Notes: a model not told the origin generated them from the letters alone. Counted from the stretch's first letter, positions 34,505 to 64,000 are shown. The stretch is 64,000 nt of DNA from Ruditapes philippinarum (GCF_026571515.1 NW_026851538.1:22164-86163); one strand, 5' to 3'. Translations and numbers: made by a program.

Positions 34505-34624
34505 GGAGAAAAGACATTTTTCTTGATGCCCGGTGAGCGACTTGAGAGAGGAATTCAAAATGTATATATCCTAGGTGAAGACGAGGGTCTCATCCTGAGA
34601 GCTAACGAGAGTTTCAAAGATGGC
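34505..34624 (+). CDS. MVP: MVP exon 6 ([40 protein letters not shown])
   Basis: Acceptor gatttacag, donor gtaagt, 40 codons. Human [40 protein letters not shown]. Confidence 0.92.
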
Positions 34625-35178: not shown

Positions 35179-35328
35179 GAGGTGGATCGTAAGCCAGGAG
35201 ATAGATGGATGATCAGAGGCCCTAAAGAATATGTTCCCCCCGTAGAGGTAGAGGTGGTGATGAAACGACAGGCCATTCCCCTTGATGAGAACGAGGGTAT
35301 ATATGTCAGAGATGTTAAAACTGGCAAG
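35179..35328 (+). CDS. MVP: MVP exon 7 ([50 protein letters not shown])
   Basis: Acceptor ttataaag, donor gtatac, 50 codons. Human [45 protein letters not shown]. Confidence 0.92.
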
Positions 35329-36050
35329 GTATACTTGATTATTTTACATTAATGCTGCATGCCTCCAGATGAGTCGAAATATTTCACGAAAATCAGAGTT
35401 GAGAAAAAATGTACTGAAATTTTATGAAAAGTAAAATGATTGAAAATTTTGGTAATAGTTTCCATGTTATGGGCTGTAATGACTGAATTTGTAGTAGTTT
35501 TCACCATAATTCTACTGTGTGACAAATACAGTTAGGGCTATATTAGCATATTTTGACCTCATTTTAGTAATAAACACAGATTGTAAGTTCTGTTTGTAAT
35601 GTGGAAATAACTTTCTTTGTTCACTTCACAATATAGTGCTTTTCAAAACATTTTTCAAAATTTTCATGAAAATTAACATGAATCTGGAGGCATGCTGCTT
35701 TAAGTTTGAGAATTTTCAGTAATTTTCTACAGAAACATATATATATAGTTGATCTATGCTTAAAGTTAACCGTCAAGATTTCAATACTTCTGACACACAT
35801 TTACACCCATTAATCAGCAATACTTGATGCTTTATCTAGGTGTAGCCAATAAATTTTATTGCTCTTGTTACATCAAATCATATCTTTTATAGTACATATA
35901 TGAGGGATTTCTTTTTAATGATAAACTGGAAATCTTTTTCGGCTGTACTACTGGAACTGTTTTCAATCCTGTAGATGAAAAAAGATTATTTTTAGAAAAG
36001 TTTATGATATACACATAAGGATGTTAGTAAATGTTTATTATTACATTTAG

Positions 36051-36286
36051 GTAAGAGCAGTTACAGGGGAGACCTACATGCTAAATCATGATGAGGAACT
36101 CTGGTCAAAGGAACTTCCTCCCGCAGTCGAGAACCTGCTAATGGCAGCTAAAGACCCGCTAGCTGACCGCAATACGAAAGGTGCACCAGAAGCCGGAAAG
36201 GCTCGTGACAAGACACGGGTTATCACATTTAGAGTGCCACACAATGCCGCTGTACAGATTTATGATTATAAGGAGAAAAAAGCTAG
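36051..36286 (+). CDS. MVP: MVP exon 8 ([40 protein letters not shown]...[18 protein letters not shown] + R partial)
   Basis: Acceptor ttacatttag, donor gtaaga, 236 nt ending in phase 2. Human [40 protein letters not shown]...[19 protein letters not shown]. Confidence 0.92.
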
Positions 36287-36429
36287 GTAAGAATGGTAAA
36301 TATGGCGGGAAAATTGGTTGAAAGAAAGTCGTCTGCTGCAATATTGTTATATTCTTTTTAATTTTCTGTTTACATGACATATAATATTGTGGTATCATAT
36401 AATATAGTGGTATGATAGTGTTTGTTGCG

Positions 36430-36670
36430 AAACCTCCGGTGTCCATAGCCAAGTGATTATGGTTGTTGACTTCTGACCACTTTCCCATCACTTCTGTGGG
36501 CTCGAGACTTCCTTGAGATTTTTTTTCTTTCATGTGAGGAAGCCAGTCAGCTAGCTAACATTACATTTGTGGTTCTATTTGGGTGCCCCTTCATGTTTGT
36601 GCGAAGGGACACCTGAGGTCTTCGATCTTCCTCGTCATATGACCTCTACTAGGATGGTGCAATGTAAAAA
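36430..36670 (+). mobile_element. tRNA-derived SINE (family with core gtgcc(c)ctgaaat...cacctgaggt) in MVP intron 8
   Basis: Homologous to 46415-46660 and 57890-58130. Partial copies at 34860-34990 and 39310-39460. Confidence 0.6.
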
Positions 36671-36860
36671 AACAACCAAAACAACAAAAGAAACCTGTTA
36701 TGTAATAATGTAGACACTAAAATTTATGTACTTGTATGTATGAAAACTTGTATTTTTGCACAATTGATATGTGCATTTGTACAATAAAGAATATTATGTC
36801 ATGTATTTATCATGTCAAGTTCATTTTTCTGTAAAACAAAAAATTTTGCCACTTTTTCAG

Positions 36861-37058
36861 AGTTATTTTTGGACCAGAATTAGTTATGCTTGGCCCAGAT
36901 GAACAATTCACACAGCTCAGTATTTCTGGTGGTAAACCAAAGAAACCAAACATGATCAAATCACTTTGTCTTCTTCTCGGACCAGATTTCTGCACAGATA
37001 TCATTGTAGTCGAGACATCTGACCACGCAAGGCTCTCACTTCAACTGTCATACAATTG
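36861..37058 (+). CDS. MVP: MVP exon 9 ([65 protein letters not shown] + W partial)
   Basis: Acceptor actttttcag, donor gtaagt, 198 nt. Human [66 protein letters not shown]. Confidence 0.93.
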
Positions 37059-37254
37059 GTAAGTAGACTGAACAGCACATTTAGAATGTGATGCTAAGAA
37101 AAAATTATAAATATATATATGTCATGAATTTTTTTTTTTGGAATTTGAAATTCAATTAAAATTAAATTTTATTCCCAAGTTTAATGATAAAGATTCCATA
37201 AGTTTCAGAACGGTTAGAGTTTAAGGAATGATAAATTTAGTTTATACGAATTTA

Positions 37255-37455
37255 TTTTAGTTTGATTGTGTTGGAAGCTATAAACTTATTGAAACACTCT
37301 CGAATCTGTTCCTGGAATTAACCAGTACTTGGCAACGAGTGTAAAATTTCTTGCTCAAGGAAACAACGGCTTTCCGCTAACTGGGTTTGAATATTTGCGG
37401 CCAGCAGTCCTTAGATTACTAGTCTGACGTGTTGACCACTCGGCCACGCCGCCAC
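37255..37455 (-). mobile_element. tRNA-derived SINE (minus orientation; head ggccgagtggtcaacacgtcagactagtaatctaagg) in MVP intron 9
   Basis: Homologous to 53545-53710 (minus orientation). Shares its tail with the fragment at 4000-4135. Confidence 0.65.
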
Positions 37456-37685
37456 ACATATTGTAATAGATACAACGTACATGTTTTGTTTGTTTTAATA
37501 ACATCATAGTTTGCTTTACGTTTTATGTGACTTGATAAAGGTTTTCAGGACGACAGCTAGATAGATAGATTCTCTTGTACATCTGTTTTCCTAAAATATT
37601 TATAATGAACATATCTACTATAATCCCTTTTAACACTGTTGATAATCTTGCTTGGTAGTGCTTCTAACATTCTAGCATTTTGCAG

Positions 37686-37830
37686 GCATTTTGAAGTTAA
37701 AAGCAAAGACGACACCGTTGAGTCTGCCAAACTATTCAGTGTTCCTGATTTTGTAGGCGATTCTTGTAAAGCTATCGCATCTCGTGTGAGAGGTGCTGTT
37801 GCCCAAGTCGCCTTTGATGATTTTCATAAG
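37686..37830 (+). CDS. MVP: MVP exon 10a ((W)[48 protein letters not shown])
   Basis: Acceptor ttttgcag, donor gtatgt, 1+144 nt. Human [48 protein letters not shown]. Confidence 0.9.
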
Positions 37831-37880
37831 GTATGTTCAAAATGATTGTTGTAAGTATTTAAAACATTTTGACTTTTCAG

Positions 37881-38025
37881 GCACTTTGGCATAGAGAATA
37901 AGAAAGATGGCGTGGATGCTGCTAAATTGTTCAGCGTGCCAGATTTCGTTGGTGATGCTTGCAAAGCTATCGCCTCTCGTGTCAGAGGGGCCGTAGCTCA
38001 AGTGGCTTTCGATGATTTCCACAAG
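37881..38025 (+). CDS. MVP: MVP exon 10b, a tandem duplicate of 10a ((W)[48 protein letters not shown]). Predicted mutually exclusive with 10a.
   Basis: Acceptor gacttttcag, donor gtatcg, 145 nt, same phase as 10a, 50 nt downstream of it. Using both would add 145 nt and shift the frame. The two copies differ mainly at synonymous sites. Confidence 0.8.
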
Positions 38026-38963
38026 GTATCGCTTTTAGAAAAAAGAATGTGTGTGGTTTTGCAAATTCCCTTAAACCATTGATTTGATACAAAAAAATTA
38101 ATATAAAGAGAAAATTTCTTAATACATGTACACCTGCCTGCTGTGCTATGTTATGAAATTTCGATCCAATTCCTCTAAGTTGTCAAAAATCTACTCACCA
38201 GTGCTGAACCCAAGAGTAAATTAATAATTCTATTCAAATCCTTCAGAATCCATTTAATTTTATAGTAAACACGAAAAATGTATCTTATAAACCTTAAACT
38301 TTTAACACTTTTTAACTTTATTACCAAAACTTGTTTAACATCAAACGTATTTCCAATGGTTTTTGGAATGAAAAAAAATGTTTGTTTTAATACCCCCCCC
38401 CCCCACCCAGCCTTCGGAAAATGTTAGTTAGGGGCATTTTATAGAAATAATACGTTGCTATATGTTGCTCATTTGAGTAGGGATTATACCTTTTAGCAAT
38501 GATGATGTGCATGGGCCATTTGTTCCTAGGGAAACATAATATTTTTTTTCTTACACATTAAGGAAGTTTTTTTTTTCAAAATTCAAAAAGTAATTTTCAT
38601 AGCTATGGGTAGCTGATATATAGCTTTACACACTTAAAAAGATACAGAACAAATGTAGTTAAAAAACATTATTATAAAAAATTATGTACATACTCTGTAC
38701 AAGTTCAAAGTTTCAACATCTCATTTGTAAATTTTAAATGGTTGGTATTATAGTTAAAGTGTCTGCCTCTGAAATCAGAGGTTGTTGGTTAAATCCCTAC
38801 TTTGATGACCACCATGTTTCCTAATATTGTTTATTGGAGCCGGGATAAAGATTGGTTAAAATGAGCTCTTTTCCAATTTAATCGTATTCGAGCTGAAATA
38901 TGTATATTTAACTAGCACCATGGGTAGACTTTTTACTGATGACATGTTTTTTGCTTGTTACAG

Positions 38964-39175
38964 AATTCAGCTAGAGTTATCCGATCGTCTGTGTTTGGTT
39001 TTGATGAGAAGGACAAAGTTCGAGATGTGTTTGTTTTCAAGCAGAATAATCTATACATCACAAGTATTGATATCCAGTCCGTGGAACCTGTCGATCAGCG
39101 TACACGTGACTCGCTACAGAAATCTGTCCAACTGGCCATTGAAATCACCACCAACTCCCAGGAAGCTGCAGCCAG
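38964..39175 (+). CDS. MVP: MVP exon 11 ([70 protein letters not shown] + R partial)
   Basis: Acceptor cttgttacag, donor gtaatg, 212 nt. Human NSARIIRTAVFGF...[37 protein letters not shown]. Confidence 0.93.
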
Positions 39176-39580
39176 GTAATGTCATGTCTTGTTATTTTAC
39201 AGGCTCGAAATCTTTAACTCTAATGTGCTGAAGTATTATTTAGAAGTAACATTTCTACAGTTTTGTTATAAAAAATTATCATATTTTTGTCATTTTAGAT
39301 GTATTTTAAAGCTATCCTTGTAGTTTTGGTGGTTTTACTCCGGTGCCCATTTGTTCCTGAAATATCGACAGAGGGGCTCTTGAGGTCTGCCTCGGTTAGC
39401 TGGAAAATCAACATATGACCTATACTGTATTGGTGCAACGTAAAACCTAACAAAACCAAAAACATCAAATAAAAGTTCACTTTTAAGTGTATACATTTTG
39501 TACATGTACATTGAAGTTTTCTGTTGAAAAAACAGTTTAGCAGATATTTGAAGAATGACAATTTCTTTTTATTTTCACAG

Positions 39581-39800
39581 ACATGAAGCTGAACGATTAG
39601 AACAAGAGGCCAAGGGTCGTCTTGAACGTCAGAAAATCAGCGATGAGGCAGAAGCAGAAAAGGCCCGCAAGGACCTGCTGGAGCTACAGGCTAACAGCGC
39701 AGCTGTAGAGTCCACTGGTCAAGCTAAGGCCGAGGCACAGTCCAGGGCCGAGGCTTCAAGAATTGAGGGCGAGGCTGCTGTTGAACAAGCCAAATTGAAG
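39581..39800 (+). CDS. MVP: MVP exon 12 ((R)[73 protein letters not shown])
   Basis: Acceptor attttcacag, donor gtatgt, 1+219 nt. Human [73 protein letters not shown]. Confidence 0.93.
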
Positions 39801-41855
39801 GTATGTTACTAAATGTGTTACTTACATAAGGTAACGGATATTTATCACAAAAACCTAGGTGAAGGAGTGTAATAAGGTCATAAAATAAAAACGATATTTC
39901 AGTGTAATAATACTTCAATGTGATGTCATTTGCAATATATTTAAATAAGACGTTAAAGCGCATCGAATAAAAAAGTACTCTATTTATAAGTAAACCATTT
40001 TTAGTTTGGATATTTGATAAATAGTATATTATATTTGTGTAGATTCAATGCTAGATTTGTTGAACTCATTATATAAAACAATGTTATGCTTGTCTGAGGC
40101 TTGCATAATATGATTTTATTCAACATGTACAAAGATTTAGTGTCAGTTACTCTGATAGTCCTTACTTTACCTTAACGTCCTTACTTAACCTTAACCCACT
40201 GAATTTATGTATTTTGGTTTGTCAAGCATTTATTTGGAACACCCCATTAAAATTAAAGGGATGTCATTTAAAGCACAAAAAAATGAGCAACCAATACTTT
40301 AGAGCCTGACAAATGGTGCATAAATTTATTGACTGGCCTGGCCTTATTCTTGTGGCAAAGGTTGATTACCTTTGGTTCCAGGCTAAGGGAACCGTAAACA
40401 TTATTTTCACTTACAGCTTTAAAATATGATATTTTTCATGCAATTAAAGGGAGACCACTGAGTTTTTTTCACATGAGCTGAACTAGAAAACGTTTTTAGC
40501 TCGACTATTCGAAGAAAATGAGAGCTATTGTAGTCGCCCCGGCGTCGGCGTCAGCGTCCGCGTCGGCGTCTGCGTTGGTTAAAGTTTTTTGTAAAGTCAA
40601 ATATCTTAAATATTGCTTGAGATATTCAATTGAAACTTACAATACTTATTTATAGTAACAAGGTACATCAGATTGACAAGTTGGATAACTCTATCTACAA
40701 TATTGCCAGAATTATGCCCCTTTTTAACTTAGAAATTTTGGTTAAAGTTTTTTATAAAGACAAATATCTCAATTATTGTTTGAGATATTCAATTGAAACT
40801 TACAATACTTATTTATAGTAACAAGGTACATCAGATTGACAAGTTGGATAACTCTGCGTACAATATTGACAGAAATATGCCCCTTTGAAACTTAGAAATT
40901 TTGGTTAAAGTTTTTTTGTAAAGTCAAATATCTCAACTATTGCTTGAGATATTCATTTGAAATTTACAATACTTTTTTATAGTAACAATGTACATCATTT
41001 TGCTAAATTGCATATCTCTGTCTGCAATATTTGCAGAATTATTTGCCCCTTTGAAACTTAGAGATTTTGGTTAAAGGTTAAAGATCTTCAAAGATATTTA
41101 CTTGAAACTTTACACATGTACTTTGGGTTATAATATGAGGGTCATAATTGTATGTCACTGACCAAGTTCCATAACTCTATCTTGCATTAAGGCTGATTCA
41201 TATCCCCTTTTCTACTTAGTCTCTTGGATAATGTTTACATGCAAGCTTTACATATCTCAATAACTATTAAAGATATTTATTTAAAACTTCACATATGCAT
41301 TTAGGGTCAGAATTGTAGGTCACTGACAAAGATCCATAATTCTATCTTGCATTTAGGCTGATTTTTCTTCCTTTTTTCAACTTTAAAAATTCATGGTAAA
41401 GTTTTGCTTGTAAGCTGTTATCTCCATAACTACTGAAGGGTTTGTGCCTTTTTTGGGACAATTTTATGCATTCGTAATAATAAAGCAGTGATTTACTTGA
41501 TAAAACAGCTTAATAACAAGCCTTTGTACCTTTTCTGTCAATTTTATGTATTCATAGGTAATTAGTATTATTATACTCAATAAAGCACCCTTGTGACATT
41601 ACCTTCCAAATAGTCAAGCCAATACTGTATAATTAGACTCTCTCTAAGACCTATAACATGAATTTATAAAAAAAAATTAGCCCTTTTGTGAACTTAAAAA
41701 ATTTAACATTATCAAGGCTCTTTTACTATCAAGCAATTAGAATAGTCGAGCGTGCTGTCCTACCGACAGCTCTTGTTTCTTAAGCAAATCTGGACTGCTA
41801 TAAATTATATGGTTAATGTTTTACATAATTAATGCTCATGGTTTTCATTATATAG

Positions 41856-42236
41856 GCACAAGCCATGAAGATTGAGGCGGAGTCTGAACTTGAGAGGTTG
41901 ACCAGTGCCAGAGAGGCGGAGCTTAAGTTTGTAAAGGAACAGAATGAAATGGAATTGGCCAAATCCAGAGAGACTGCCGAGATCGAGACAGTTAAGTTCA
42001 AGCAAATGGTGGACGCTATTGGTTCGAGCACCCTTCAGGCCATTGCCACGGCTGGTCCGGATCTTCAGGTCCGCATGCTCCAGGCTCTTGGTATGAAATC
42101 AACTGTGATCACCGACGGCACCACACCGGTCAATTTGTTTAACACGGCCCAAGGACTAATTGGGGGAATTGGAGGTGGACATATGGTCCCTTCAAAACGT
42201 GCACGAAGAAATGACGATGATGAGGATGATGATTAG
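41856..42236 (+). CDS. MVP: MVP terminal exon ([15 protein letters not shown]...[80 protein letters not shown])
   Basis: Acceptor ttatatag, TAG stop at 42234-42236. Part of listed ORF 41865-42236. Human AQALAIETEAELQRV...[57 protein letters not shown]. Total CDS is 2580 nt, 859 aa. Confidence 0.93.
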
Positions 42237-46414: not shown

Positions 46415-46660
46415 TGGCTGAGTGGTTACAGTTGTTGACTTCAAACTACAGTTCCTCACGCTTGTGGGTTTGAATCCCGCCAGTTCAAGGGAGGAGACTT
46501 TCCAACTAGCTTACGAAGTGTTGGTGATTCTAGTCAAGTACCTGTTCGTGCCTGAAATATTGCACGGAGTGGCACCTGAGGTTGTCCTCCAGCACTAAAG
46601 CTTGTAAGTCGCCATATGACATTTACCGTGTAAGTGCAACATGAAAAACCAAAAAAGTAA
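46415..46660 (+). mobile_element. tRNA-derived SINE (A-box tggctgagtggtta, B-box gggtttgaatcccgcc)
   Basis: Immediately follows the satellite element. Same family as 36430 and 57890. Confidence 0.6.
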
Positions 46661-47365: not shown

Positions 47366-48255
47366 TCAGTCCTGAATGTTCCAGTTTAAATTTACATTTT
47401 CTATGTTTCTACTTAATGTAAATTCCGTTATCTGAGCACCTTCTTTCCTCAGTTCCTGCCTCTGCTTTTCTATACCACTTATGGCAGTGGCACATGCTGC
47501 AATATTTATATCATCAGACTCAGGTGATGTCTCTGTGTCATTTATGTTACATTCTGATTCAGACAACTTTCGCTTAACTCGTTTTGCTTTCTTGACAATT
47601 TCTTTCTCTTGCTTGATTTTCTCTTTTTCCTGTTTTATTTTCAGCCTTATTTCTTGCTTCTTACGTACTGCATCTCATCATTTTCGCCTATAATGATACC
47701 TTCCCTTCTATCCTTTTAAGCTTGTTATTTCTGGACTTTTCTTCCTTTACCTGTTTATGCTATCTTTTTCAGTCAGTTCTTCTTCGATTTCATTGGTCGT
47801 TAGAACCCGCGCTTTCTTTTCCACTTTACTACCGGGGGCAGTTTTGCACTTAGCATCAAATGTTGGCGTGACCAAGACATTTGGAAGATCTTCTGAAATT
47901 AGCAAAGCTGTCACAAGTGGGTTCAATTTAATCGTCTCTTGGGGGCGATTTCTGCTGTATATATGACTTGTCCTTTCAGAGAAAACTCTTTCTTGTTTCC
48001 TAGCGAAAAGTAGGCCTATTTCATTTTCTTGATCAATTGGTTCAAGGGCAACAACCTTTTCCTTCAAGACGTTCCACGTTTGATACGTTCTGTCATCTGG
48101 CAAGTCAATATTAAAGTTCGAACATTCATGGTAACACCTCTTTTTCTTTGCGCAAGTGTCATCTCCATTATAGCTGCCAAAGCCAGTTCGGGGGGGGGGG
48201 GGTTCTGTACTATTAAATCAGCTATCTCACCATCATTGATGACTGGTTGAGGCAT
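47366..48255 (-). pseudogene. unassigned minus-strand ORF cluster: three consecutive ORFs in two frames, Lys/Glu-rich, interrupted around a G13 homopolymer (48190-48202). Possible frameshifted gene, retrogene or TE-derived ORF.
   Basis: ORFs 48064-48255, 47747-48103 and 47366-47566 overlap or abut in different frames. The second ends at caacag|gtaaag, a donor-like site. No family was recognised. Confidence 0.25.
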
Positions 48256-50890: not shown

Positions 50891-52437
50891 AACACATTTT
50901 ATACTTTGACATGTAACCTCTATTTCAAACATGTCGATACATTGTCAAACATTCTACAGTACTTTAGAAACACAACTGTGTAATCACGTGATACTTTTTA
51001 GACATGATATACTTATCTTTTGTAAGTGTCAAAAGGACATCCGTGATAGTTGTCAAGGCCATCATAAGTTTGGCGATTTTTTGTATATTTCTCGGCCCTT
51101 TCCGTCAAACTTCAGATAGTGACACGAACATAACGGAAACGGTAGTTTAGTTTATACCCTACAAAATATTAACTTACGTAAAGCAAGTAAATACTTCGGC
51201 TTGCAGAAAATGATAAAGTAAACATCATTATTATTTTTTTTTTTTGCAAATTATTACTTTTTGTACAAATAGCATGCCAGTTAACGATGGAATGTATGTC
51301 TAGGGGTATACTAAAATTGAATACATTTTTCAATAATATTTTACCAAAAGACCATGTACACTTCAGATGACAATTGATGTATTCTTACTTATAATGCAAA
51401 AATTAAACCCATACCAAAAATCACGTGGTAAAAACTTCTTCCCGTTTGTATTATTTCCCAAAACGGCGAAGTGCTCTTTATAATTATTCGTTATTGGCGA
51501 AGTGTCCAAATAATTATTAGAAATTGCCACAGAGGTTCCCCTGATCGGGGTAGACGAATCAATAAGTTCGGACAATTCCGGTATATTTCGCCACTTTCCG
51601 TAACAGTAATTTTCGATACGACCATAAGCATCAAACAGCAAAGATGAACATAATCTCAGAAGTATTTGAATTGACAAATATAATTAGAATATCAGCATTT
51701 CAGAGCCGAATGGTTGTACAGATCACGAAAACATGTAGACCCAGTCACAAATCGTCTAAAATTTGACACACATTCCCTCTGTCCACTCACTTAAGACATG
51801 TTCATAATATAAGCACACGGTAATACTAAAATTGAACATGTATTAGGAAATCACGCTTAAGTAAAATGAAAGAATACAGCAAAAACTTTATTTGATTATT
51901 TGTTTTGTTTGTACATAATTGCGTTGTATATTGATAATCATTTAGTATTTATTTAAGCGTTTGCAAATTTTCAGGTTGCTAGGTATATATAGTTTCATAA
52001 GTATAAAAGTTTGATCAGTTTAGGGCAAGCAGTCTAAACTGTGACGATTTGTTGTTGGAATTGATCGCGGATTGGTGGTAATACATCAGCCGGCAAGGTA
52101 ATTAGATATTTGCTGTAATAATCATGGAAGAGTCCGTTTTTTTAAAAAAATGTTTTACAAGGATATTTGGGATGATATATGTTATTTAATAAATTTTATA
52201 GTCTGTTATACACTAAGATATGAAGGAAGGAGACTTTTTAAAAAAATATATATAAAAAAAAAAAATTAAAAAAAATGATATAGTAAATAAAAAAATCAAA
52301 TTAAAAAAATCAAATACCGGTAATAATAATAAAAAATGATAAAAATGAAAATTAAAAATAGATAAATAAATCGAATACTCGCCTGAACAAGAGATATTTA
52401 TGTTCTTGACCCTCGCTCATTTTACAGTATAACTAAA

Positions 52438-52582
52438 ATGGCGGTTTCGTACCGATGTCTTTTACTGGCGTTGCTATGCTGCCAAGTGAACCTAATGGAA
52501 TGTTTTATGCTAGCAAGTAGGTCACTTCCAGCGGTTAAATTGAGCATGTTAAAACCACAAGGGATCAGATTTTCATTTCCAG
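52438..52582 (+). CDS. beta-1,3-glucanase / LGBP-like gene exon 1: signal peptide and start of betaGRP N-domain (MAVSYRCLLLALLCCQVNLMECFMLASRSLPAVKLSMLKPQGIRFSFP)
   Basis: ATG at 52438, hydrophobic signal, donor gtaatg. LPAVKLSMLKPQGIRFSFP matches the insect betaGRP N-domain VPSAKLEAIYPKGLRVSVP. Preceded by an A-rich low-complexity stretch. Confidence 0.75.
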
Positions 52583-52622
52583 GTAATGTATATTAATAGT
52601 TAATATCAATAGATAAGTAAAA

Positions 52623-52768
52623 TGAGCCGCGTCACGACAAAACCAACATAATGGGTCTGCGACCAGCACGGATCCAGACCAGCCTGCGCATCCCCTCTGA
52701 TGCGCAGGCTGGTCTGGACCCATGCTGGTCGCAAACGCACTATGTTGGTTTTGTCGTGACGCGGCTCA
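52623..52768. mobile_element. palindromic MITE copy e (146-bp near-perfect palindrome), 41 bp after the glucanase exon-1 donor
   Basis: tgagccgcgtcacgacaaaaccaacataatgggtctgcgaccagcacggatccagaccagcctgcgcatcccctctgatgcgcaggctggtctgga...gcggctca. Confidence 0.85.
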
Positions 52769-52804
52769 AATTTATAGTATCATAGAAACGAGTTAGTTAC
52801 GAGC

Positions 52805-52925
52805 GTATTTAAGTCATGTTTCGATTTTCATTGAGGGACTTTTGGTCATTTTTTAAAACAACGTCGAGGGTTTCTGTCCTACATATTCTGTTCGACAACA
52901 GTGGACAAATGCCCCTCTGTTATAA
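52805..52925 (+). repeat. dispersed repeat of about 120 bp, copy 2
   Basis: Homologous to 50770-50890. Confidence 0.6.
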
Positions 52926-53544
52926 AAAATATCGAGGCCAAAAGGTCAAGACGATCTTTTTTTTTATCAGAAACAACCCAAGATGTCGCCCGAGCAAGTA
53001 TTATATCCCCGTTACTAACGAGTGTCATATATTATAACTGTTTTATCGCAATTTCATTATTCAGGAATCAGGAAAAGAATTGCTGTCTTCGGTGCTTTCT
53101 TCTCTCTAGTACCCTGCCTTAATTGTTACAAAATGAAAACCCTAGAAAAAAAATGAAATTCCAACTTATGCTGTCGTTAGCAACCATACAGCTATATATA
53201 ATATGTCAGTCAAGTGCATGCGCATTGTTCAGTTGTGTTTGATGTCGCATTTTTTTAAATCTCCTATTTTAGGACGTAGGTAATGTATTACCCTTTTTCA
53301 GTGGTAATATTTTTATCAGTTGATGCACCCTTTTCAGTTTTCGGACTTGTATATTGGTATTACTTTTTTCAGTGGTAATAACTCTTTTAGTTGACGTACC
53401 CTTCAACTGTATATAGCAGTTGAGATGATATTCCTATATGAATCAAGGAGAAAGAAAAATAACAGCACTGTTAAATATCAATACATTTTTCAAATCCTCA
53501 TTTTAAGTGTACTGAATATAAAAGGTTAGAAAGAACAATGAAAA

Positions 53545-53710
53545 AATCCAAACCAGGCGATAAGCTTATTGAAACACGCTCGAATTCTGTTCATGGAACT
53601 GACCACTACTAAGCAATAAATGTAAAATTTCTTGTTCACGGACACAAATGCTTGTCCCTGACGAGGTCTTTCATTACTAGTCCAAAGTGTTAACCACTCA
53701 GCCAAAGCCA
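53545..53710 (-). mobile_element. tRNA-derived SINE (minus orientation; ggctgagtggttaacactttggactagtaatgaaag)
   Basis: Same family as 37255-37455. Confidence 0.6.
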
Positions 53711-54202
53711 TCATTCTTAAGCCAGGAACTTGACTTTGTGACAAGCAAAGATTTGTTAACAACTTTGCTTTTTGTTGTGATCAGTAAAATCCCCGCCGCC
53801 TGGAATCCGAAACACCTTCCTATGCAATTCCTCGCATGTCTCCGGGAATGAAGGCCAGCGGCCAGAGTTACAAATGACGGGAACTTAACGGGTTCTTCAA
53901 TATGTACATGCACCAAGCATTTGTAATTTAGTACATTGGTATTACAATTTACATTTTGTCATATAGAATGCCTTAGCAAGATTTTTTATTAACCGTACAT
54001 TAGTTATTTTGTGTGCATATGTTTCATTTAGTATGCCGCAAGACTGGAATAAGATTATTATTACAAATTTGTCATGATAATGCGATAATTTCAGTTAACT
54101 GAATAAAACGAAAAGAAACAAAACAAAAAAAACCCCGAAAAGCAGAGACTTTTTATAACGAGTAATACTATCTTTTTGTATGTATGTATGTATATATTTC
54201 AG

Positions 54203-54304
54203 ATGTAAATGGCGTTTCCCTGGTGTCATACCACTATAGCATCAATTCACCACTGCCGGACTTATCTGCTGGGCAGGTAGGAGTTGACGTCAACACAAAA
54301 ACTG
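54203..54304 (+). CDS. glucanase gene exon 2 ((D)VNGVSLVSYHYSINSPLPDLSAGQVGVDVNTKT + G partial)
   Basis: Acceptor atatttcag, donor gtaatt, phase links to exon 1. Aligns to betaGRP [25 protein letters not shown]. Confidence 0.75.
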
Positions 54305-54429
54305 GTAATTTTACGAATGCGGCCATTGGTCATTTACATAACTTAATATGTGCAATAAAGTATCAAAAAGTAAACAATATCACGGATAAAGCAATATCAC
54401 GTTTTAATCATTGAAAGTGTAAAAAAGCA

Positions 54430-54990
54430 CTTAGATAATAGGACATTGACTTACAATTTTAGTGCGTCAATAGGACATTGTCTTACAATTTAAGTTCGGT
54501 ACTAAGATATTGCCTTACAATTAAGGTTCATTAATAGGATATTGTCTTACAATAAGAGTTCATTAATAGGATATTGCCTTACAATTACAGTTCATTAATA
54601 GGATATTGTCTTACAATTAAGGTTCATTAATAGGATATTGTCTTACAATTAAGGTTCATTAATAGGATATTGTCTTACAATTACAGTTCATTAATAGCTC
54701 ATTGTATTACAATTATGGTGAGAAAATAGGACATGGTCTTACAATGAGAGTTCATTAATAGGATATTGCCTTACAATTACAGGGCGTTAATAGGACATCG
54801 TCTTTCAATTATAGTTTGTTAATAGGACAAGATCTTACAATTTGAGGTCATTAATATGATATTGGGCGTTTATTGGACATTGTCTTACAATTAGAGTTCA
54901 TTAATAGGACATTTCATTGTCTTACAATCATAGTGTGTTAATAGGACTTGGTCTTACAATTAGTGGTCGTTAATAGGACATTGTCTTATG
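54430..54990. repeat. minisatellite: about 17 units of 33 bp (aataggatattgtcttacaattaaggttcatt) in glucanase intron 2
   Basis: Periodicity read directly. Confidence 0.85.
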
Positions 54991-55301
54991 CCAGAGGCCC
55001 GTATACTATAATTTTATTCAATTCGTTCAATAAATTTAGTATTAAATCTATACACTCATTCAATATCCTCTATATTTGTGCTATCAATGCTAAACATTTT
55101 GTATTAGACGAAACAAAGACGGTCCATCGCCTGCAACATTAATATGCAGCGGGTTTGTGTGTATTGAACAGCTATCCAATGAAAATGGACGTTACAAACA
55201 TGCAGTGTTATCACATTGCTCACATGAGTTTTTTTCAAAATGAAAATGAGTAACTAAAGTATTTAAATTCCAATTGCACCAAGTGGTTTTATGTATTGCA
55301 G

Positions 55302-55427
55302 GTAACGAATGGGTACATGAAAATTCGAATGTGGTTGTGAACCCTGGGGATACAGTTAACTATTGGTACAACGTCATACAAAATGGTGAAGGTCACGTGG
55401 TCAAAGGCCAGTCATGGACGGCGTCAA
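55302..55427 (+). CDS. glucanase gene exon 3 ((G)NEWVHENSNVVVNPGDTVNYWYNVIQNGEGHVVKGQSWTAS)
   Basis: Acceptor atgtattgcag, donor gtgagt. Aligns to betaGRP ...KLKVGDTIYYWTYVIYNGLGY... Confidence 0.8.
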
Positions 55428-55734
55428 GTGAGTTCCCACCAGCGTTTAAAAAGAAAATTCCTTTAGAATTATTAGTGAAAAAACATGTTCATGTACTTTT
55501 CTTTTATTTTGTTTAGTAATTGAACTGAATATGCGAACTGAAAAATAATACACGCATATTTATAGTTTGTAAATCAATCTTTTTTGTACTGACCTGTCAC
55601 GATATTATAAAGAAATTTATCTCCGTCGATATTCTAGAAATTTGAAAATCAAAAGTTTTTTTCGTGTAACAACAATCAAATACACTTTTAAGACTAACAG
55701 CATTTCATAATTATTAATTTCCTTTTTTTTAAAG

Positions 55735-56138
55735 ATCCAACAAACCCGACTACAACAACCACAACGACAAGAAGACCAACAACGCATGCCCAAACACAGA
55801 CGCCTGCTAAAACTACAAAATCTATCTTTAGCAACATGCAGGCGTATTACAACAGTTTGAATGGTTCTGGAACTACAAACACAGGTTCAGGAACAGTAAC
55901 TTCCGGTACCCAGTCAGGGACTTCCGGTACACAAAATACCCAGAATACCCAGAATGTTGTATCCGGAACCTCGAGTCAATCTACTTCAGGTGGATCATGC
56001 GGTTGCCAAGGCAAATCAATACGCCCACCAGGATCAGAATTATCCTGCACGACTTTTCCATGTATGATATTCGAAGATAATTTTGATTTCCTAAACTTGG
56101 ATGTTTGGGAGCACGAAATTACAGCGGGAGGAGGCGGA
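55735..56138 (+). CDS. glucanase gene exon 4: Thr/Ser/Gly/Gln-rich linker, then the start of the GH16 domain (...PPGSELSCTTFPCMIFEDNFDFLNLDVWEHEITAGGGG)
   Basis: Acceptor ttttttttaaag, donor gtaata, 2+402 nt. FEDNFD...LD.WEHE.T.GGG is a GH16 laminarinase N-terminal motif. Confidence 0.8.
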
Positions 56139-56490
56139 GTAATATTTCTTTTTAGTAACTGCAATGTTAAAATAATTTGTAGAGAACTGTTTTCTTTGGT
56201 GATTTGCATGGTTTGATCAGTTTGTTTTAAGTTCCTAATGAGTTGCCAGTTCAGCAATTCCAGAATACAAGCTGATATGTATAAGTGACCCACACAAAGT
56301 TTCACAAACACACAATTTTAGATAATGAAGCATGCAACAGTTAATCAACAAAAATGATGATTTTATTTCTTACATTTTATCAAACACTATATTTTCCCCC
56401 GTCCAAAATGGTCAGCAATTGTAAGGCAATCATCTTATATCTGTACTTGCATGTTTTCTAATTTATAAAACACGTTCTTATATATTTCAG

Positions 56491-56565
56491 AACTGGGAAT
56501 TTCAGTATTATACAAACAATCGTACCAACAGCTATGTAAAGGATGGGAAATTGTTCATTAAACCG
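56491..56565 (+). CDS. glucanase gene exon 5 (NWEFQYYTNNRTNSYVKDGKLFIKP)
   Basis: Acceptor tatatttcag, donor gtaaga, 25 codons. Mollusc/arthropod GH16: GGGNWEFQYYTNNRSNSYVRDGKLFIKP. Confidence 0.88.
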
Positions 56566-57744
56566 GTAAGAATGAACTTAAACAAGATATTCGGACCACA
56601 GGTGTATTTTGATATTTGATACATGTTTTTAATTCAAATTCCGTTATTTTTCACAACAACAAAAAAAAAACAATAAAAAACAATACATGTATACTTAATA
56701 AAGGTATACAACTCGCCGCTCATTTTTCAGCACTCATCTTAATATGAGCTCCTTAACTCCAACATTTTTTCACCAATTTACAAATGGTAGGAAAGTGAAA
56801 ATAAAGCTGTCATTACAGTCATTTCAAGTTATAAGAAGATAGGTCATCACGATGTCACCGCAAGTCTATGTCGACAGGGTTTTGAAAATTGAAAATTACC
56901 CGGCTAAATGGCGGTTTATTCGAAACGAATGGATTGTTTATATTGCTTATATAAATATAATAAAATTATATTATTATTTGCAATAACTGTTTAACCAAAA
57001 CATCATATAAAACAATAACGAACCTACTTTGTTCTGATTTGTCACTTCTCAATCCAAAATGAAAGTTCGGAATCAGCAGAGTAAAAAATCTTCCCTTAAT
57101 TTTTGTATGAAGTATTTTCATTGGTTATGTGAAAACCTCAGACCAAAAAAAATACACTTCAAGAAATAATGGGGGAGAGCACTTAGCTTCACCCGTTGCT
57201 TGTATTACGATTTGGAATTTGACATATCGGAAAAACGGTATATATACGGTTGTGAATGATTACAAAATATATAGTCAAACAGATTTTTAACAAGTAAAAA
57301 GGACACCTTAAATAGAAGAAAAATCATCACTATCGATATGCTATAATTTAATTTCAATGTTTACAAAATAGATATTTTCTTAAAAGCTACAAGAAATAAT
57401 TATCAGATTGCTACCATATTTACTTTTTGTATTGAACACTTTAAAATAACATACGTTTGCATGTTAAACAGGTACACTTCGACCGAGTATCTTTTTAAAA
57501 GATGCTTCCCGTTTGTGCGTTAATTAAGTTGACAAAGTCGCTGACTTCGGATTACCTTTACTGCTGTGAAGGGGGGGGGGGGGGGGGGTGGTTAATCCTA
57601 CAATCTGGATTTTCAAAATAAGGAAGCTATTCATTATCCTCAAAGAGGGTCGTTGTTTTTAATAAAGAACCTATCGACCTGAGGTCTTCCTCTATTAACC
57701 AGCCAAATAAAATTGTATATGCGCTGTTCTTTTTCTGTTTTCAG

Positions 57745-57811
57745 ACATTCACCATCGAGTCAATAAATGACGGTCCAGACAGTTTGACGAAAGGATCTTT
57801 AGATATATGGG
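57745..57811 (+). CDS. glucanase gene exon 6 (TFTIESINDGPDSLTKGSLDIW + G partial)
   Basis: Acceptor ctgttttcag, donor gtatgt. Aligns to TLTADKFGEAFLSSGTLDLWG. Confidence 0.75.
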
Positions 57812-57889
57812 GTATGTAAAATATAAACATTTTGGGTTGCAAGACAAAAAAAAAGTTATTTCGAGGGAAGAAAGAATGACAGAAGCGGT

Positions 57890-58130
57890 AGCTGATAGTG
57901 ATATGTCTTCAGTATCGTCTGTAACGTAGCCGAGTTGTTAAGATTGTTGCCTTCAAACTTCTGGCCATTCACGACTGTGTGTTCGAATCCCGCCAGGGAC
58001 TATGGCTTCTTTCATGTGAGGAAGCTATCCCGCTAGCAAACGGAAATATCGGTGATTCTACACAGTGCCCGTTCGTGCCTGAAATAATGACACGGAGGGG
58101 CACCTGAGGTTCCACACCCAACATCATCCC
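57890..58130 (+). mobile_element. tRNA-derived SINE in glucanase intron 6, flanked by G19 (57571-57588) upstream and C9 (58128-58136) at its 3' end
   Basis: B-box gtgttcgaatcccgcc and core gtgcctgaaataatgacacggaggggcacctgaggt. Confidence 0.6.
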
Positions 58131-58159
58131 CCCCCCATAAAAAATGCAGTAACTACCTT

Positions 58160-61100
58160 TATGAGCAATAAGTTGAAACCATGGTTTATGGAACAGAATT
58201 AATGCATTTATTCTATCTTGCTTGATGACATTGGAACTTGCATTATGCTTAATTCCATCTTGCTTGATGACATTGGAACTTGCATTATGCTTGATTCCAT
58301 CTTGCCTGATGACATTGGAACTTGCATTATGCTTAATTCCATCTTGCTACATGACATTAGAACTTGCATTATGATTGATTCCATCTTGCTTTATGATATT
58401 TAAAAGTTGCATTATTCTGGATTCCATTTTTCATTATTTCATTCAAACATTTCGTAGTGACCTTTTCTTTCATTGAGTGATAACTATTAAAGTGGAACAA
58501 GCCATTTGGAATACTAAAATGTTAACGTCTTATACCTTTATGTATAAGCTACCTTTCTTCATGCTCTATACAAACCATTTACGGTTTAGTTTTTTTTTGT
58601 ATTACTTTTATGTAGAAGTCATTCAAAATTGACTATTTTTTGTTCCCTGGTGGATTTTGTTAAAATGGGACTTATTTGATTTACAGCTCGCATGGCGTGA
58701 TTACCATTAGCTTTCGCTTATATCCATTATTCAGTGTTTATGATTAATAAAGCTCGGTGTCTGAGGCTTTGTGGATTATGGTTGAACTTCTTACATTATG
58801 ATAAACAATTTAAACAATGTCTAGCGATTTGTGAACTGTTAAGGGGCGAGAACTCTGTTATCGATATCAACGGATTTTTTCCATGATCCGCCTATCATCG
58901 GAATTTTCCGTAGATGTATATATTACGGAATACCGTTAGGGCCATCGTGGTTATACGTTAAAATACAGAGGGCGACAATGCTATAAATACGTACCAAGCG
59001 CTTAATACATTAATTGCAGTGGAAAGAATATAAATACAAGTAGTAAGGATTATGCAATATAATTTTATACATGTATATGTATACAGTCCAATAGAAAAAA
59101 TATGCTCGTAAACAGTTACTGAATGGGGCAGTTATACGTACAGTGGCGGATTCAGGCCTTGGCTTAAGGGCTGCACCTACCCCCAAAGATACGTTGATGA
59201 ACTGGGATGGAATATATACGTGTAAGTTTCATGCAATAGTGGTCATAGTGTACTCCCTTATCAAAACATAAAATTATAATGCTGTCATCCAGTTGTTAAG
59301 CACCTGCCTACGATTGCGAAGGTCTTTATCTAATGACTTGGACATTGAAAAGCAAAACTTATTAATTGGCCTTTTAACTTAATAAATGTCTCAGTCACTA
59401 ATAGTGGCGAATAGGTATGTAACACATTAAAATATACATGTATAATAAGGAAAGAAGGAAGTTGTTTATTTTTGTGACATGTGCATAGTCAATTACAAAT
59501 GTTGGGCATATGTGTATCTGATTATAGATCAGACATCCCGCACACACCACCACATTCACATACATTTGTGCTTAAAGATATACTATGCACATCTTTCAGT
59601 AATATATTTTTATCACAGAAATTTATTGAAATCTATAAAATTCTTACTAAATATGTTTTATTTAAATAAAAACACATACACATAATGTATAGGAATCTGC
59701 TTTCCTTATTACGGGCAAGTAAAGTTGTGCCTGTCTTTAAAAGAAACTTCCATATATATTTTTGTAATAACACTATACATGAATATTCATACTGCCCAAT
59801 TACAGTGTAAAGTATTTAAAGCACAATGTTTGTGTGAAGCCAAATTATATTTATTTTATTTTACAAAAACAAAATCAAGTTTGTACTTTACTAAGTCGTG
59901 GCCACGAGTTACTAAGTGACATGTGTGTGTTTTTATTTATCTCTTTAGTTATAGCCCTTTGTTGGGACAATTCTATGATAGAATTTGTCATTTTGTACGT
60001 ACAAAGGCCTGTTAAGTAATAGAAAGAGCACCGAAACACGAGGTTATCTGATTTGTACGAGGGGGCGTAGCCCCCGAGTATTAATCAGATTACCGAGTGT
60101 TTTGGTGTTCTTTCTCTTTTGTATCATAGTCAAACATAAAAACACGTTCCCTGTTGTTACAATATGAAACCCCGGCAAAAATGAACCAATGAACGAGCAT
60201 CTAAAATTGACATTTCTGTCGATTTCACTTTCACTGCCGTCACAATATGTAAACCCCAGCAAAAATGAGCCAATCAATGGGCATGCTCTAGAGTGCGGGT
60301 AACTAATACCCGCACTCCAGTTAACGCACTGTGCATGTATATGTATACGATTTAACCCTGACACATTTTCAAAAGAAAGGTCTCCAAACTATGATACAAC
60401 ATTGTTTATACCATAACTTGAGAGGGACTTAGTCCTGGTTTATTTTATTGGGAAGGGACATTGCTCATGGACAGTAGATATCCTATAAGGATGTTTGAGG
60501 TCAGAGGTCAGATAAACATGACACTTCATGCAAAATCCTTGTCTGATGAATGATTTAGAAAGAATAAGCCGTAGTTTATATAACCTAAAAAGATCAGTAG
60601 ATGACACCAAATAATTTTTAGGCAATTTGGTCAGAAATCAGGGTCACAATGACGCTAAATCTTTGACCAATCAATAACTTGTATAAATGGCACTTTTACG
60701 GACAAATGAAGTAGGTGCATCCTTGTTAGGAAAATTCATATAAATAGTGTAATTTGATGGGTTATTTATCTCGTTCGCACGACTTAACTTTTTCTTGGCC
60801 ACGACTAAACTTTCTCGTGGCCACGACATAGTAACTTGTTCCAACGACATATTTATCTCGTGGCCACGACTTAGTAACTCGTGGCCACGACTAAGTTATC
60901 TCGTTCCCACGACTTAATTACCTCGTGGCCACGATTTTAGTAACTCGTGGCCCACAACATAGTATCTCGTTCCCACGACATAACTATCTCGTGGCACGAC
61001 TTAGTAACCCGTAGCCACGACACAGTATCTCGTGCGCACGAGATAAATAAAAACACACACGTCCACCTTCGTGCCACCTTAAGTTTGATAAAAATTCAAT

Positions 61101-62030
61101 TTCACTTATCACACCACGCTCAAAAAGAAGTGTAAACAATTGTATAAGAGGTGAGTTGCCACTTGTAGGATGAGTTATTAGAGACATATATAACTTTTTT
61201 TCCACATGCTGGGGGAATCTTCAAAAACACGCACTTTTCGTCTGTCGCATCGTGTTCTCCTTTTTTTTTAGTAAATTAACATGTCAGTCCCCAACTAACA
61301 CTGTTCTGTATACGCCCCTAATAAGTGGACGTAACTTTGTTTACTCCACGTGCCAAAATACGGGATCATCCGGAAAAATAACGGGATGTATCGACAAAGC
61401 GACACCTGCTGTTCATAATATGAAACACAAATTATTGCAACTCGCATTTATGCTTACTGCCAACTGCTGAGTGCGTAACTGTCACATGCGACTATAATAT
61501 CGCTATCGTTGTCATCTTCGTTGTCGATGCGCACTGATCATGCATTGCATTATATTTGTAATCAGTGAATATATTTGAAGCATATGAATGCTAAGAAACA
61601 TCAAATCAGCCAATTATTGATCTAAAATGAATAGTTTAAATTTGACATTAATGTCGACAATATAAGTGGCGGCAGATTTATAGCAAAAATTAAAGAATAC
61701 AACTACCATGTTACATTTTTATAGTTAATAAAGAATGTTATGCTGAACACCAAACATAATACGTTGTCCCTTAAAAAAGATGCAATTAAACATATAGCAT
61801 ATTAAAATATGTGAGTTTGATGGTTTAGTAGGGAACACACAAGGTTGCAATTACATGAAAGTGCATTCAGTAATAATAAAGGCATGATTGAATTCAGCAA
61901 AACGCAGGTTTTCATTGTCATAAAGAAGTATAGAAGCAAGCATAATGTAAGTTCCGATATCATAAAGCAAGATGGAATAAATGCATTAATTCTGTTCCAT
62001 AATGGTTCAAGGTTAAAATACTAGCGTAGT
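58160..62030. mobile_element. TIR-bounded insertion of about 3.9 kb in glucanase intron 6, apparently non-autonomous. A 42-bp tandem repeat (58218-58403, about 4.4 units) is expanded at the left end only. It also holds 21-23-bp tandem repeats (60775-61040), an 80-bp direct repeat (60165-60295) and two GC hairpins.
   Basis: Left end ccatggtttatggaacagaattaatgcatttattctatcttgcttgatgacattggaacttgcattatgctt. The reverse complement of 61940-62015 matches it: ccattatggaacagaattaatgcatttattccatcttgctttatgatatcggaacttacattatgctt. No transposase-like ORF was seen. Confidence 0.6.
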
Positions 62031-62181
62031 ACAAAGTAAACATCAAAATGAGGTTATGAAAACGTGTGTACAGTTTATTTCTAATCAACGTTATCGAAAA
62101 GCTGTTGTAAGAATGACACATAACAAAACAAAAATCCCAAACAAAAACAAATTAATCTTCAATATGAATATTTTCTGTCAG

Positions 62182-62364
62182 GTTCTCAGCCCGGTGATGT
62201 ATGCACTGCAAACAATTTCTGGGGATGCAAACGAGACGGTACGCCAGATCACATCATCAACCCCATCCAATCAGCACGACTCCGTAGCTCACGTGGGTTT
62301 AATTTTAAATATGGCAAAGTCGAAGTTCGCGCCAAAATGCCTACAGGAGATTGGATCTGGCCGG
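62182..62364 (+). CDS. glucanase gene exon 7 ((G)SQPGDVCTANNFWGCKRDGTPDHIINPIQSARLRSSRGFNFKYGKVEVRAKMPTGDWIWP)
   Basis: Acceptor ttttctgtcag, donor gtaaaa. GH16: GSPADLCTGNAWYGCERTG...IINPIKSARIRT...FRYGRLEVEAKLPTGDWLWP. The listed ORF 62056-62418 is the wrong frame over this exon. Confidence 0.85.
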
Positions 62365-62872
62365 GTAAAACAAATTATAAATAATTTCTCTTTCTTGACG
62401 TTTCATGTACTTTCTTAATAGATAATGCTTAAAATCCAAAATTGTCACGAATCCGTCACACATAAATAAACTTATTATGCGTTTCGGCGCAAAGTTATGA
62501 TATACATGTTTGTATATATGCTTTGGATATATAAGTGATGTAAGAATAGAAGTCACATGAGACATCTTTGAGGTTCAAAGATCCCATCAGATTTTTCAAC
62601 GTAAACATTGCATTTTCAATGAGACAGGAAATGACCTCTTGACACGAAAAAATATAATAAATAAATAAATGCAATGTATACAATTTATAATTATGTACAG
62701 TACATGTAGTAAAGTATGATACAATAAGCTTTAGTCAGCATAAATCAATATATATCCAAATACAGAACGGTATTTCAAAGTATTTACAAAGTGGAATTCG
62801 TTTTCTTCATTTAATTTACAAGTCAACTGTATTTTTCATTCAATTCATATTAAATTTGAACATTTTTTCCAG

Positions 62873-62950
62873 CTATTTGGATGTTACCGTTGAGAAATGC
62901 ATATGGAAGATGGCCAGCTTCTGGAGAGATCGACATTGTTGAGGCCAGAG
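62873..62950 (+). CDS. glucanase gene exon 8 with the catalytic motif ((A)IWMLPLRNAYGRWPASGEIDIVEAR + G partial)
   Basis: Acceptor cattttttccag, weak donor gttatt. The E-I-D-I-V-E GH16 signature is intact. Confidence 0.8.
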
Positions 62951-63534
62951 GTTATTTGGCTTTATAATTATTGCAATGTGCTTCAATTTTCATAACTGTT
63001 ATTAATTTATGGATTTGATTTATTCTTGGACAAAAGAACATTAATGACAAAACTGATGTGGTGAATAATTCAAATGTGATCTTGACCTTTGAATGACCTC
63101 GACTGTCAAGGTCAAATATGAAATTTATTTGTTTAAAAAAATATGTTTTGTAGTAGTACCCTTTACTGTATCCTTCCTGTTGTGACTTTAGAACTATGAA
63201 AAGTTCGAGCGTGACCCCCGCTATGAGATGGCTTTTGTTGGAAATTTCCATGATAAATTTTGGAGTTATCAAACTTAATTTTTAAGTTACTAGTTACAAA
63301 GTTAGCCAAAAGTACAGGGTCAAGTCGGATGGCACGGCTTTGAAACATCTCTATATACTCGTGGCAATGACTTGTTTAAACTACTAGTACCCTGTAAAAG
63401 TTTGGTGGCTCTCAAATACGTGGGCCCATTAAAAGCCTTGACAATTTCCCATCAAAAAAGTTGTAATAAAACAAAAGTCTACTTACCTAACTCATTACAG
63501 TTATTAGGAAAATTTGTTATTTCTTTGTTGCTAG

Positions 63535-63652
63535 GAAACCGTGTTTACCATGATGACAAAGGTCATTCGCAGGGAATTGATAACGCTGGAAGTACACTTC
63601 ATTTTGGATCCGATTTCTGGCACAACAAATGGCCAAAAGCCCATGGAGAGAA
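63535..63652 (+). CDS. glucanase gene exon 9 ((G)NRVYHDDKGHSQGIDNAGSTLHFGSDFWHNKWPKAHGE...). The gene continues past the window end.
   Basis: Acceptor tttgttgctag. Aligns to GH16 ESRGNDNL...VDQMGSTMHWGPFWPLNGYPKTHATK. Either an in-frame TAA at 63654 or a donor gagaa|gtaatg. The GH16 domain is incomplete, so splicing onward is the likelier reading. Confidence 0.7.
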
Positions 63653-63930
63653 GTAATGATTTATTGTATTAAATAATATATCTTTAGTGAAAATACATGC
63701 ATACCCTTATGACAATCATGAATAATGTAGTGACAAGGCCGCATATATTTGTAAAACAATTTTGTGCATTTTTATTGACATTGGGTGTAAATTAATGCTT
63801 GCAAACATCTATCCTTGTTTTCTCCTTTAAAAAGCAACTCTTCTCCTGGCGTCGTATCTTTCTTATTCAGGCCATGCCCCCCCCCCCCCCCCCGCCTATC
63901 CCGTCAGCAACTTGAATAACTAATAATATA

Positions 63931-64000
63931 TGAGCTGCGTCACGACAAACCCAACATAATGGGTTTGCGAGCAGCATGGATCCAGACAAAAACATAATAT
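63931..64000. mobile_element. palindromic MITE copy f (left arm only; cut off by the window end)
   Basis: tgagctgcgtcacgacaaacccaacataatgggtttgcgagcagcatggatccagac. Confidence 0.7.

Follow-up and report, generated by a model that had tools for sequence, protein, structure and literature searches.

The GH16_4 group, in which about 9% of some 1,900 members lack catalytic residues, contains 13 metazoan members with shown endo-beta-1,3-glucanase activity (PMC6827312). The beta-glucan receptors of insects represent a derived, catalytically dead state (PMC7915573, PMC6403176), termite GNBP-2 reportedly serves both as receptor and as an effector with beta-1,3-glucanase activity (PMC4139394), and reports of molluscan LGBPs that carry a "glucanase motif" go back to 2004 (PMC5877582). 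Here we analyse a stretch of 64,000 nt from Ruditapes philippinarum (GCF_026571515.1 NW_026851538.1:22164-86163; hereafter the window, with positions counted from its first letter), in which a spliced model places a gene of the LGBP/betaGRP-GH16 type, with nine exons, on the + strand at 52438-63652. From its sequence, we put at roughly 85% the probability that this gene encodes an LGBP/betaGRP orthologue of CBM39-linker-GH16 architecture, probably secreted, which would serve as both glucan sensor and endo-beta-1,3-glucanase. The family is well described, and the gene is an ordinary member of it and, in that sense, already known.

Domain architecture and catalytic residues

In the protein translated from the spliced exons, Pfam recognises a CBM39 domain (PF15886) at residues 30-134 (E=2.5e-24, 85.5 bits against a cutoff of 25) and a Glyco_hydro_16 domain (PF00722) at residues 337-410 (E=1.6e-5, 24.9 bits against a cutoff of 22). 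The modest GH16 score is explained by the window end, which truncates the domain: its first two-thirds are encoded here, and the full-length orthologue of Tapes literatus scores 46.9 bits. A previous interpretation of the same DNA (the sequence-only reading) had assigned exons 1-3 to a betaGRP/CBM39-type N-terminal domain and the downstream exons to a GH16 domain retaining both catalytic glutamates, and had proposed a HMMER search of the assembled protein for Glyco_hydro_16 and CBM39. Both assignments hold in the Pfam search, the N-terminal domain at the E value just given and the GH16 domain above its cutoff, with no substitution of the catalytic residues in the spliced model.

The N-terminal domain also matches the betaGRP/GNBP3 N-domains of Plodia, Bombyx and Drosophila in the PDB, with E of ~1e-11 to 5e-13 (entries 3AQY, 3IE4, 2KHA, 3AQX and 2RQE, E 5e-13 to 8e-12). 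Asp77, encoded by exon 2, is aligned with the Asp of the insect R-D-I segment and is invariant or nearly so in homologues. In Bombyx, Asp49 touches the bound glucan (laminarihexaose) chains (PMC7915573), the Bombyx residue number for the counterpart of Asp77 being deduced from the alignment. Ahead of this domain, the N-terminus carries Arg6 and, after it, the hydrophobic run CLLLALLCC.

The catalytic motif ASGEIDIVEARG is intact in exon 8, where E386-I-D388-I-V-E391 occupies 62926-62943 on the + strand. By alignment with GH16 enzymes, the nucleophile would be Glu386 (62926-62928) and the acid/base Glu391 (62941-62943), with Asp388 (62932-62934) as helper residue. The C-terminal part of the protein matches active laminarinases in the PDB (E down to 4e-18), and its segment WPASGEIDIVEARG lines up with WPKSGEIDIMEHVG and WPDNGEIDIAEHVG of solved laminarinases. 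The non-catalytic betaGRP/GNBP3 of the insect type is distinguished by loss of one or both catalytic Glu; in the window gene both Glu and the Asp are present, and by its sequence the gene is not of that subtype.

An intact site is, moreover, common among the relatives of this protein. Queried with a first, crude concatenation of the exons, ~5.8 billion proteins yielded 2110 matches at E<=0.001 among 8000 candidates scored, the leading ones all being metazoan LGBP, betaGRP or glucanase proteins. Among the best 120 of these 2110 homologues, CBM39 was detectable by BLASTP in 66, and E-x-D-x-x-E is kept in 61 of the 66; two of the five exceptions are records named partial, and most of the five are shorter (327-522 aa) than the typical ~500-570 aa. 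An alignment of 37 CBM39-GH16 proteins, drawn from molluscs, echinoderms, hemichordates, tunicates, annelids, a brachiopod, a nemertean and a copepod, shows no variation (37/37) at Glu386, Asp388 and Glu391 or at the flanking W-P-x-S-G-E and R-G-N. Judged from these sequences, CBM39 combined with an intact ExDxxE is the default state in mollusc, echinoderm, hemichordate, tunicate, annelid and brachiopod homologues. The sequence-only reading had contrasted the retained glutamates with their loss in insects; the insect half of that contrast stands (PMC7915573, PMC6403176), but by the count above an intact motif is normal outside arthropods and does not set this gene apart. Its proposal that the protein might combine enzymatic activity with a receptor role is a reasonable one, and we regard catalytic competence of the window protein as fairly probable.

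The same evidence bears on whether the protein could instead be a purely non-catalytic receptor like insect betaGRP/GNBP3, with a motif that is vestigial or used for binding only. The database names, beta-glucan recognition protein and LGBP, would suit such a receptor, as would work on molluscan LGBPs that reports binding and agglutination, not hydrolysis (PMC5877582), but we find it improbable: the Glu/Asp/Glu set, together with the WPASGEID..E.RGN block around it, does not vary among phyla that parted hundreds of millions of years ago, which is hard to explain without selection for catalysis, and the insect receptors that lack activity have also lost these residues (PMC6403176, PMC7915573).

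Between the two domains of the sensor-enzyme that we favour lies a linker at residues ~125-216 (92 aa), with 26 Thr, 14 Ser, 11 Gly, 9 Asn and 9 Gln (Thr 28%, Ser 15%, together 43%) and five SGT[TVQS] motifs. This composition and the SGTx repeats agree with the earlier description of exon 4 as encoding a Thr/Ser/Gly/Gln linker, which was incomplete in that the exon also encodes the first ~45 aa of GH16. Cell-adhesion motifs of the RGD/KGD type are frequently mentioned in papers on LGBPs; none is present in the window protein.

The fold was modelled for the full-length Tapes literatus orthologue, with a 36-sequence alignment, and the model bears on the window gene by proxy, not directly. It predicts a signal-peptide-like N-terminal helix (residues 4-23 of the Tapes model), a CBM39 beta-sandwich of seven strands (residues 34-122; predicted local distance difference test, pLDDT, 80-96 for the block), a linker without regular structure (residues 130-222; pLDDT below 50) and a GH16 domain (residues 230-571; pLDDT mostly above 85). 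In a Foldseek comparison of this model with the PDB, all best matches are GH16 laminarinases, with E down to 3e-16 and a target-normalised TM-score of up to 0.77.

Gene structure and orthology

Exons were derived by six-frame translation and homologue-guided splicing, in which the + strand of 52000-64000 was translated, conserved peptides were located and each junction was inspected. The base composition of the window is AT-rich (31-39% G+C) and clearly eukaryotic. Exon 1 (52438-52582) opens with an ATG at 52438 and encodes the signal-peptide-like N-terminus (MAVSYRCLLLALLCCQVNL...) and the start of CBM39, ending in phase 1 at the donor GTAATG; alignment of its product with the Tapes literatus protein begins at Met1. 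CBM39 continues in exon 2 (54203-54304; DVNGVSLVSYHYSINSPLPDLSAGQVGVDVNTKTG, including Asp77) and is completed by exon 3 (55302-55427; NEWVHENSNVVVNPGDTVNYWYNVIQNGEGHVVKGQSWTAS). The linker exon, exon 4 (55735-56138; Thr/Ser/Gly/Gln/Asn-rich, ...FPCMIFEDNFDFLNLDVWEHEITAGGGG), is followed by five exons that encode GH16 sequence: exon 5 (56491-56565; NWEFQYYTNNRTNSYVKDGKLFIKP), exon 6 (57745-57811; TFTIESINDGPDSLTKGSLDIWG), exon 7 with the core of the domain (62182-62364; SQPGDVCTANNFWGCKRDG...SARLRSSRGFNFKYGKVEVRAKMPTGDWIWP), exon 8 with the catalytic strand AIWMLPLRNAYGRWPASGEIDIVEARG (62873-62950; weak donor GTTATT) and exon 9 (63535-63652; NRVYHDDKGHSQGIDNAGSTLHFGSDFWHNKWPKAHGE-). All nine lie on the + strand.

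Since a GTAATG donor comes directly after exon 9, which closes in phase 2, the gene extends beyond the window end. The Tapes literatus protein runs 142 aa beyond the last exon of the window gene, leaving about 140 aa missing here, and Dreissena has three downstream exons past the corresponding point; the Tapes, Meretrix and Dreissena proteins all end ...DAAMQVDYIRVWKLKP. For the next exon, there is no match to LASSGTYGDSF... within 63653-64000. The span 52438-63652 given by the sequence-only reading is exact at both ends, from the ATG to the last base of exon 9, and its statement that the gene is cut at the window end after exon 9 agrees with the open frame and the donor found there. No second gene copy is present, since tblastn of the Tapes protein against the 64-kb window returned the nine exons only.

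The best match in the database search was a "beta-glucan recognition protein" of Tapes literatus (UniProt F6LP53, 571 aa; 77% identity to the crude query), whose E of 3e-237 excludes chance. With the same crude query, Meretrix meretrix LGBP shows 79% identity over 86% of the query length (BLASTP), homologues of Mya and Mactra 56-59%, and those of scallop, pearl oyster, oyster and mussel 45-48%; the protein of Dreissena polymorpha is about 62-62.6% identical. The refined model raises identity to the Tapes literatus protein to 83.5% over 424 aligned residues. These matches mark the source as a venerid clam, although none of them reaches 90% identity. Exon by exon, identity to Tapes is 92-97% in exons 5-9 (92% in exon 7) and 90% in exon 3, falling to 60-76% in exons 1, 2 and 4, a pattern that would be expected for a functional gene with constraint strongest on the catalytic domain.

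Gene structure and neighbourhood add to this. The Dreissena orthologue has 13 exons in 6.9 kb, and the nine window exon ends fall at Dreissena residues 36, 70, 112, 244, 269, 291, 352, 378 and 417, which are exon borders there, so that 8 of 8 intron positions are common to the two genes. Exons of a gene for major vault protein (MVP) lie at 29523-42233 on the + strand of the window (Pfam Vault_2 E=1e-26, Vault E=9e-33, Vault_4 and Vault_3), and in the window as in Dreissena this gene ends ~10 kb before the LGBP gene begins, both having the same orientation. Sequence, intron positions and synteny together support orthology to bivalve LGBP/betaGRP. At L001 11839-12227, the Dreissena orthologue has an additional intron that splits the linker exon, undivided in the window gene.

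These data also make it very improbable that the locus is a decaying or truncated copy, that is, a pseudogene with a functional copy elsewhere. Such a reading could appeal to the C-terminal third lying outside the window, to the repeat-laden introns and to the weak donor GTTATT of exon 8, but the spliced frame is open across 432 codons without stop codons or frameshifts, the splice sites are all canonical (8 of the 8 introns in the window are GT...AG), the catalytic exons retain their high identity to expressed orthologues, and intron positions and synteny are as in Dreissena.

Intron 6 and other features of the window

Intron 6 measures 4370 nt, compared with ~280 nt for the equivalent Dreissena intron, and 3817 nt of it (87%) are taken up by an element at 58186-62002. 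The terminal inverted repeats of this element match perfectly for 28 nt (TTATGGAACAGAATTAATGCATTTATTC) and at ~82% identity for ~122 nt, and they are partly made of 42-bp subterminal tandem repeats. The 28-mer occurs at only two sites in the window, and none of 100 shuffles gave two matches. No transposase-sized open reading frame (ORF) was found in intron 6; its four ORFs of at least 70 aa, which the Pfam scan did not cover, have the look of noise, and on this basis we term the element non-autonomous. Its anatomy is that of a foldback-type non-autonomous DNA transposon. TGGT flanks the element at both ends, but a target-site duplication of only 4 bp is weak evidence alone, a point against this interpretation, and it is ambiguous for superfamily. 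Within the element lies a nested one (59923-61060) with perfect inverted termini of 21 nt (GTGTGTGTTTTTATTTATCTC), inside which a palindromic 22/43-bp tandem array occupies 60766-61046. Intron 6 is thus long because of a 3.8-kb foldback-like element that harbours a second, nested element, as had been anticipated from the sequence when its 4.4 kb were attributed to a transposon insertion.

Further repeats are distributed over the introns of the gene. Intron 2 contains a 32-bp tandem array at 54436-54988, with 13+ copies (79% matches) and a degenerate 32/37-bp continuation. In intron 1, a palindromic interspersed repeat resembling a miniature inverted-repeat transposable element (MITE) lies at 52599-52776 and has copies elsewhere in the window. 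The window holds at least six copies of its family, which translates as ...SDCADAQAGLDPCWSQTHYVGFV..., among them those in LGBP introns 1 and 9 (15113-15195, 25543-25807, 26155-26401, 29768-29973, 52599-52776 and 63921-63987). An interspersed repeat fragment in intron 6 (57929-58111) is 72% identical to 46417-46583. An origin of this fragment from a tRNA-derived short interspersed nuclear element was considered and is unsupported: ARAGORN called no tRNA in the window, where the only Rfam match is to a tRNA at 17049-17121.

The latter match, on the + strand (RF00005, 39.5 bits against a gathering score of 29) and not called by ARAGORN, could be a divergent tRNA gene or the head of a tRNA-derived repeat. 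Between MVP and LGBP, the - strand at 47369-48217 carries two exon-like open stretches of 102 and 156 aa that are rich in Lys and Glu; a Pfam scan of the 156-aa stretch gave no match. An open stretch of 138 aa on the - strand (15895-16308), ending ...SAIHFYSGNPAVEKVKGILHIYKDK, has no significant Pfam match either; we take it to resemble the start of the BRAP2 domain of BRCA1-associated protein, a likeness that is unconfirmed. Finally, a tandem array on the - strand at 13556-14437, with an open repeat unit of ~53 aa (SKNRFRSSSLQLLAGIQRNFMG...), an implied period of roughly 160 bp and no Pfam match, is probably a satellite or a repeat-derived ORF.

Proposed function and comparison with known systems

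The architecture suggests how such a protein would work. It is probably secreted, with CBM39 docking it onto structured beta-1,3-glucan, such as that of fungal or algal walls or laminarin. The Ser/Thr-rich spacer, probably O-glycosylated and disordered, would lend reach to the tethered GH16 domain, a beta-jelly-roll that probably cuts beta-1,3 linkages by the retaining double-displacement mechanism of GH16. In the cleavage step Glu386 would act as nucleophile and Glu391 as acid/base, with Asp388 assisting. More tentatively, and with somewhat less than even confidence, we suggest that the long-form LGBP of bivalves is truly bifunctional: CBM39 would capture structured beta-1,3-glucan on microbes, while an active GH16 domain would damage the wall and set free soluble pieces of glucan that spread the immune signal, a condition that may be ancestral to the dead-enzyme receptors of insects. 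If so, sensor and effector would be one polypeptide in molluscs.

Several points weigh against a protein that is both sensor and enzyme. The characterised digestive glucanases of molluscs are, as far as found, short forms without CBM39 (e.g. Lcf, PMC7551256), and we found no published activity assay for a molluscan LGBP that bears CBM39. In addition, ~140 C-terminal residues of GH16 lie outside the window, so that an intact gene cannot be proven from it.

As for the main role, the sequence would suit either immune recognition with effector function or digestion of algal glucan. A mainly digestive protein, that is, a CBM-tethered laminarinase for algal storage glucans (laminarin, chrysolaminarin) in a filter-feeding clam without a real role as immune receptor, would fit the intact and invariant catalytic machinery and the catalytic exons being the most conserved part of the gene. 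Molluscan GH16 laminarinases are, moreover, known from hepatopancreas and crystalline style (PMC8949617, PMC7551256), and a CBM attached to a glycosidase classically targets its substrate. We nevertheless consider this role unlikely, given that the characterised digestive enzymes of molluscs are short and devoid of CBM39 (the nucleophile of Lcf is Glu150; PMC7551256), whereas the long forms CfLGBP and Pinctada LGBP bind lipopolysaccharide (LPS) and glucan, agglutinate microbes and rise on bacterial challenge (PMC5877582).

For the CBM39-linker-GH16 sensor and glucanase that we favour, the present analysis has little value apart from correct annotation. With it, a further venerid orthologue joins a family whose molluscan members have been cloned since 2004. 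The exact exon map will be useful for completing the gene model, and either the window gene or its Tapes and Meretrix orthologues would be suited to testing whether the "recognition proteins" of bivalves are also enzymes.

Among known systems, the betaGRP of Tapes literatus and the LGBP of Meretrix are closest, with the same order of parts: a leader, CBM39, a Thr-rich/SGT-rich linker, a CGC motif and GH16 with PASGEIDIVE(T/A)RG. They belong to other venerid species, their linkers differ in length and sequence, and the window holds the first 432 of ~570 residues; a literature search on venerid betaGRP found nothing relevant. The LGBPs of the scallop Azumapecten/Chlamys farreri (CfLGBP) and of Pinctada fucata share family and architecture at 45-48% identity, and published work presents both as pattern-recognition receptors that contain a glucanase motif and are inducible by bacteria or LPS (PMC5877582). 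They are more distant, and their binding and agglutination have been shown by experiment, whereas the window gene is known from sequence alone. The short-form endo-1,3-beta-glucanases of molluscs (scallop Lcf, the enzymes of Mizuhopecten yessoensis and Tapes literata, and abalone HdLam33) share the GH16 subfamily and the ExDxxE motif, short-form homologues being 60-70% identical to the window protein over the GH16 region, and are proven laminarinases with transglycosylation activity (PMC7551256). Unlike the window protein, they lack CBM39 and linker, and they are digestive enzymes.

Outside molluscs, a Strongylocentrotus purpuratus protein named "beta 1,3-glucanase" likewise combines CBM39 with GH16, but it comes from a deuterostome and is 45% identical, and its proposed role, if it is the egg enzyme of that species, is developmental, not immune. 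Termite GNBP-2 presumably also has the architecture of CBM39 joined to a catalytically intact GH16. It is reported to be a secreted beta-1,3-glucan/LPS-binding protein with the dual role that the sequence-only reading proposed (PMC4139394), and for this protein the concept of a combined receptor and enzyme is already established; it belongs to an insect lineage, no mucin-like linker is reported for it, and the comparison made here is one of described function. The betaGRP/GNBP3 proteins of Bombyx, Plodia and Drosophila (PDB 3AQX, 3AQY/3AQZ, 2KHA, 3IE4) share a homologous CBM39 (E ~1e-12) in which the glucan-contact Asp is conserved. Their GH16-like domain has neither the catalytic glutamates nor glucanase activity (PMC7915573), whereas the window gene keeps these glutamates.

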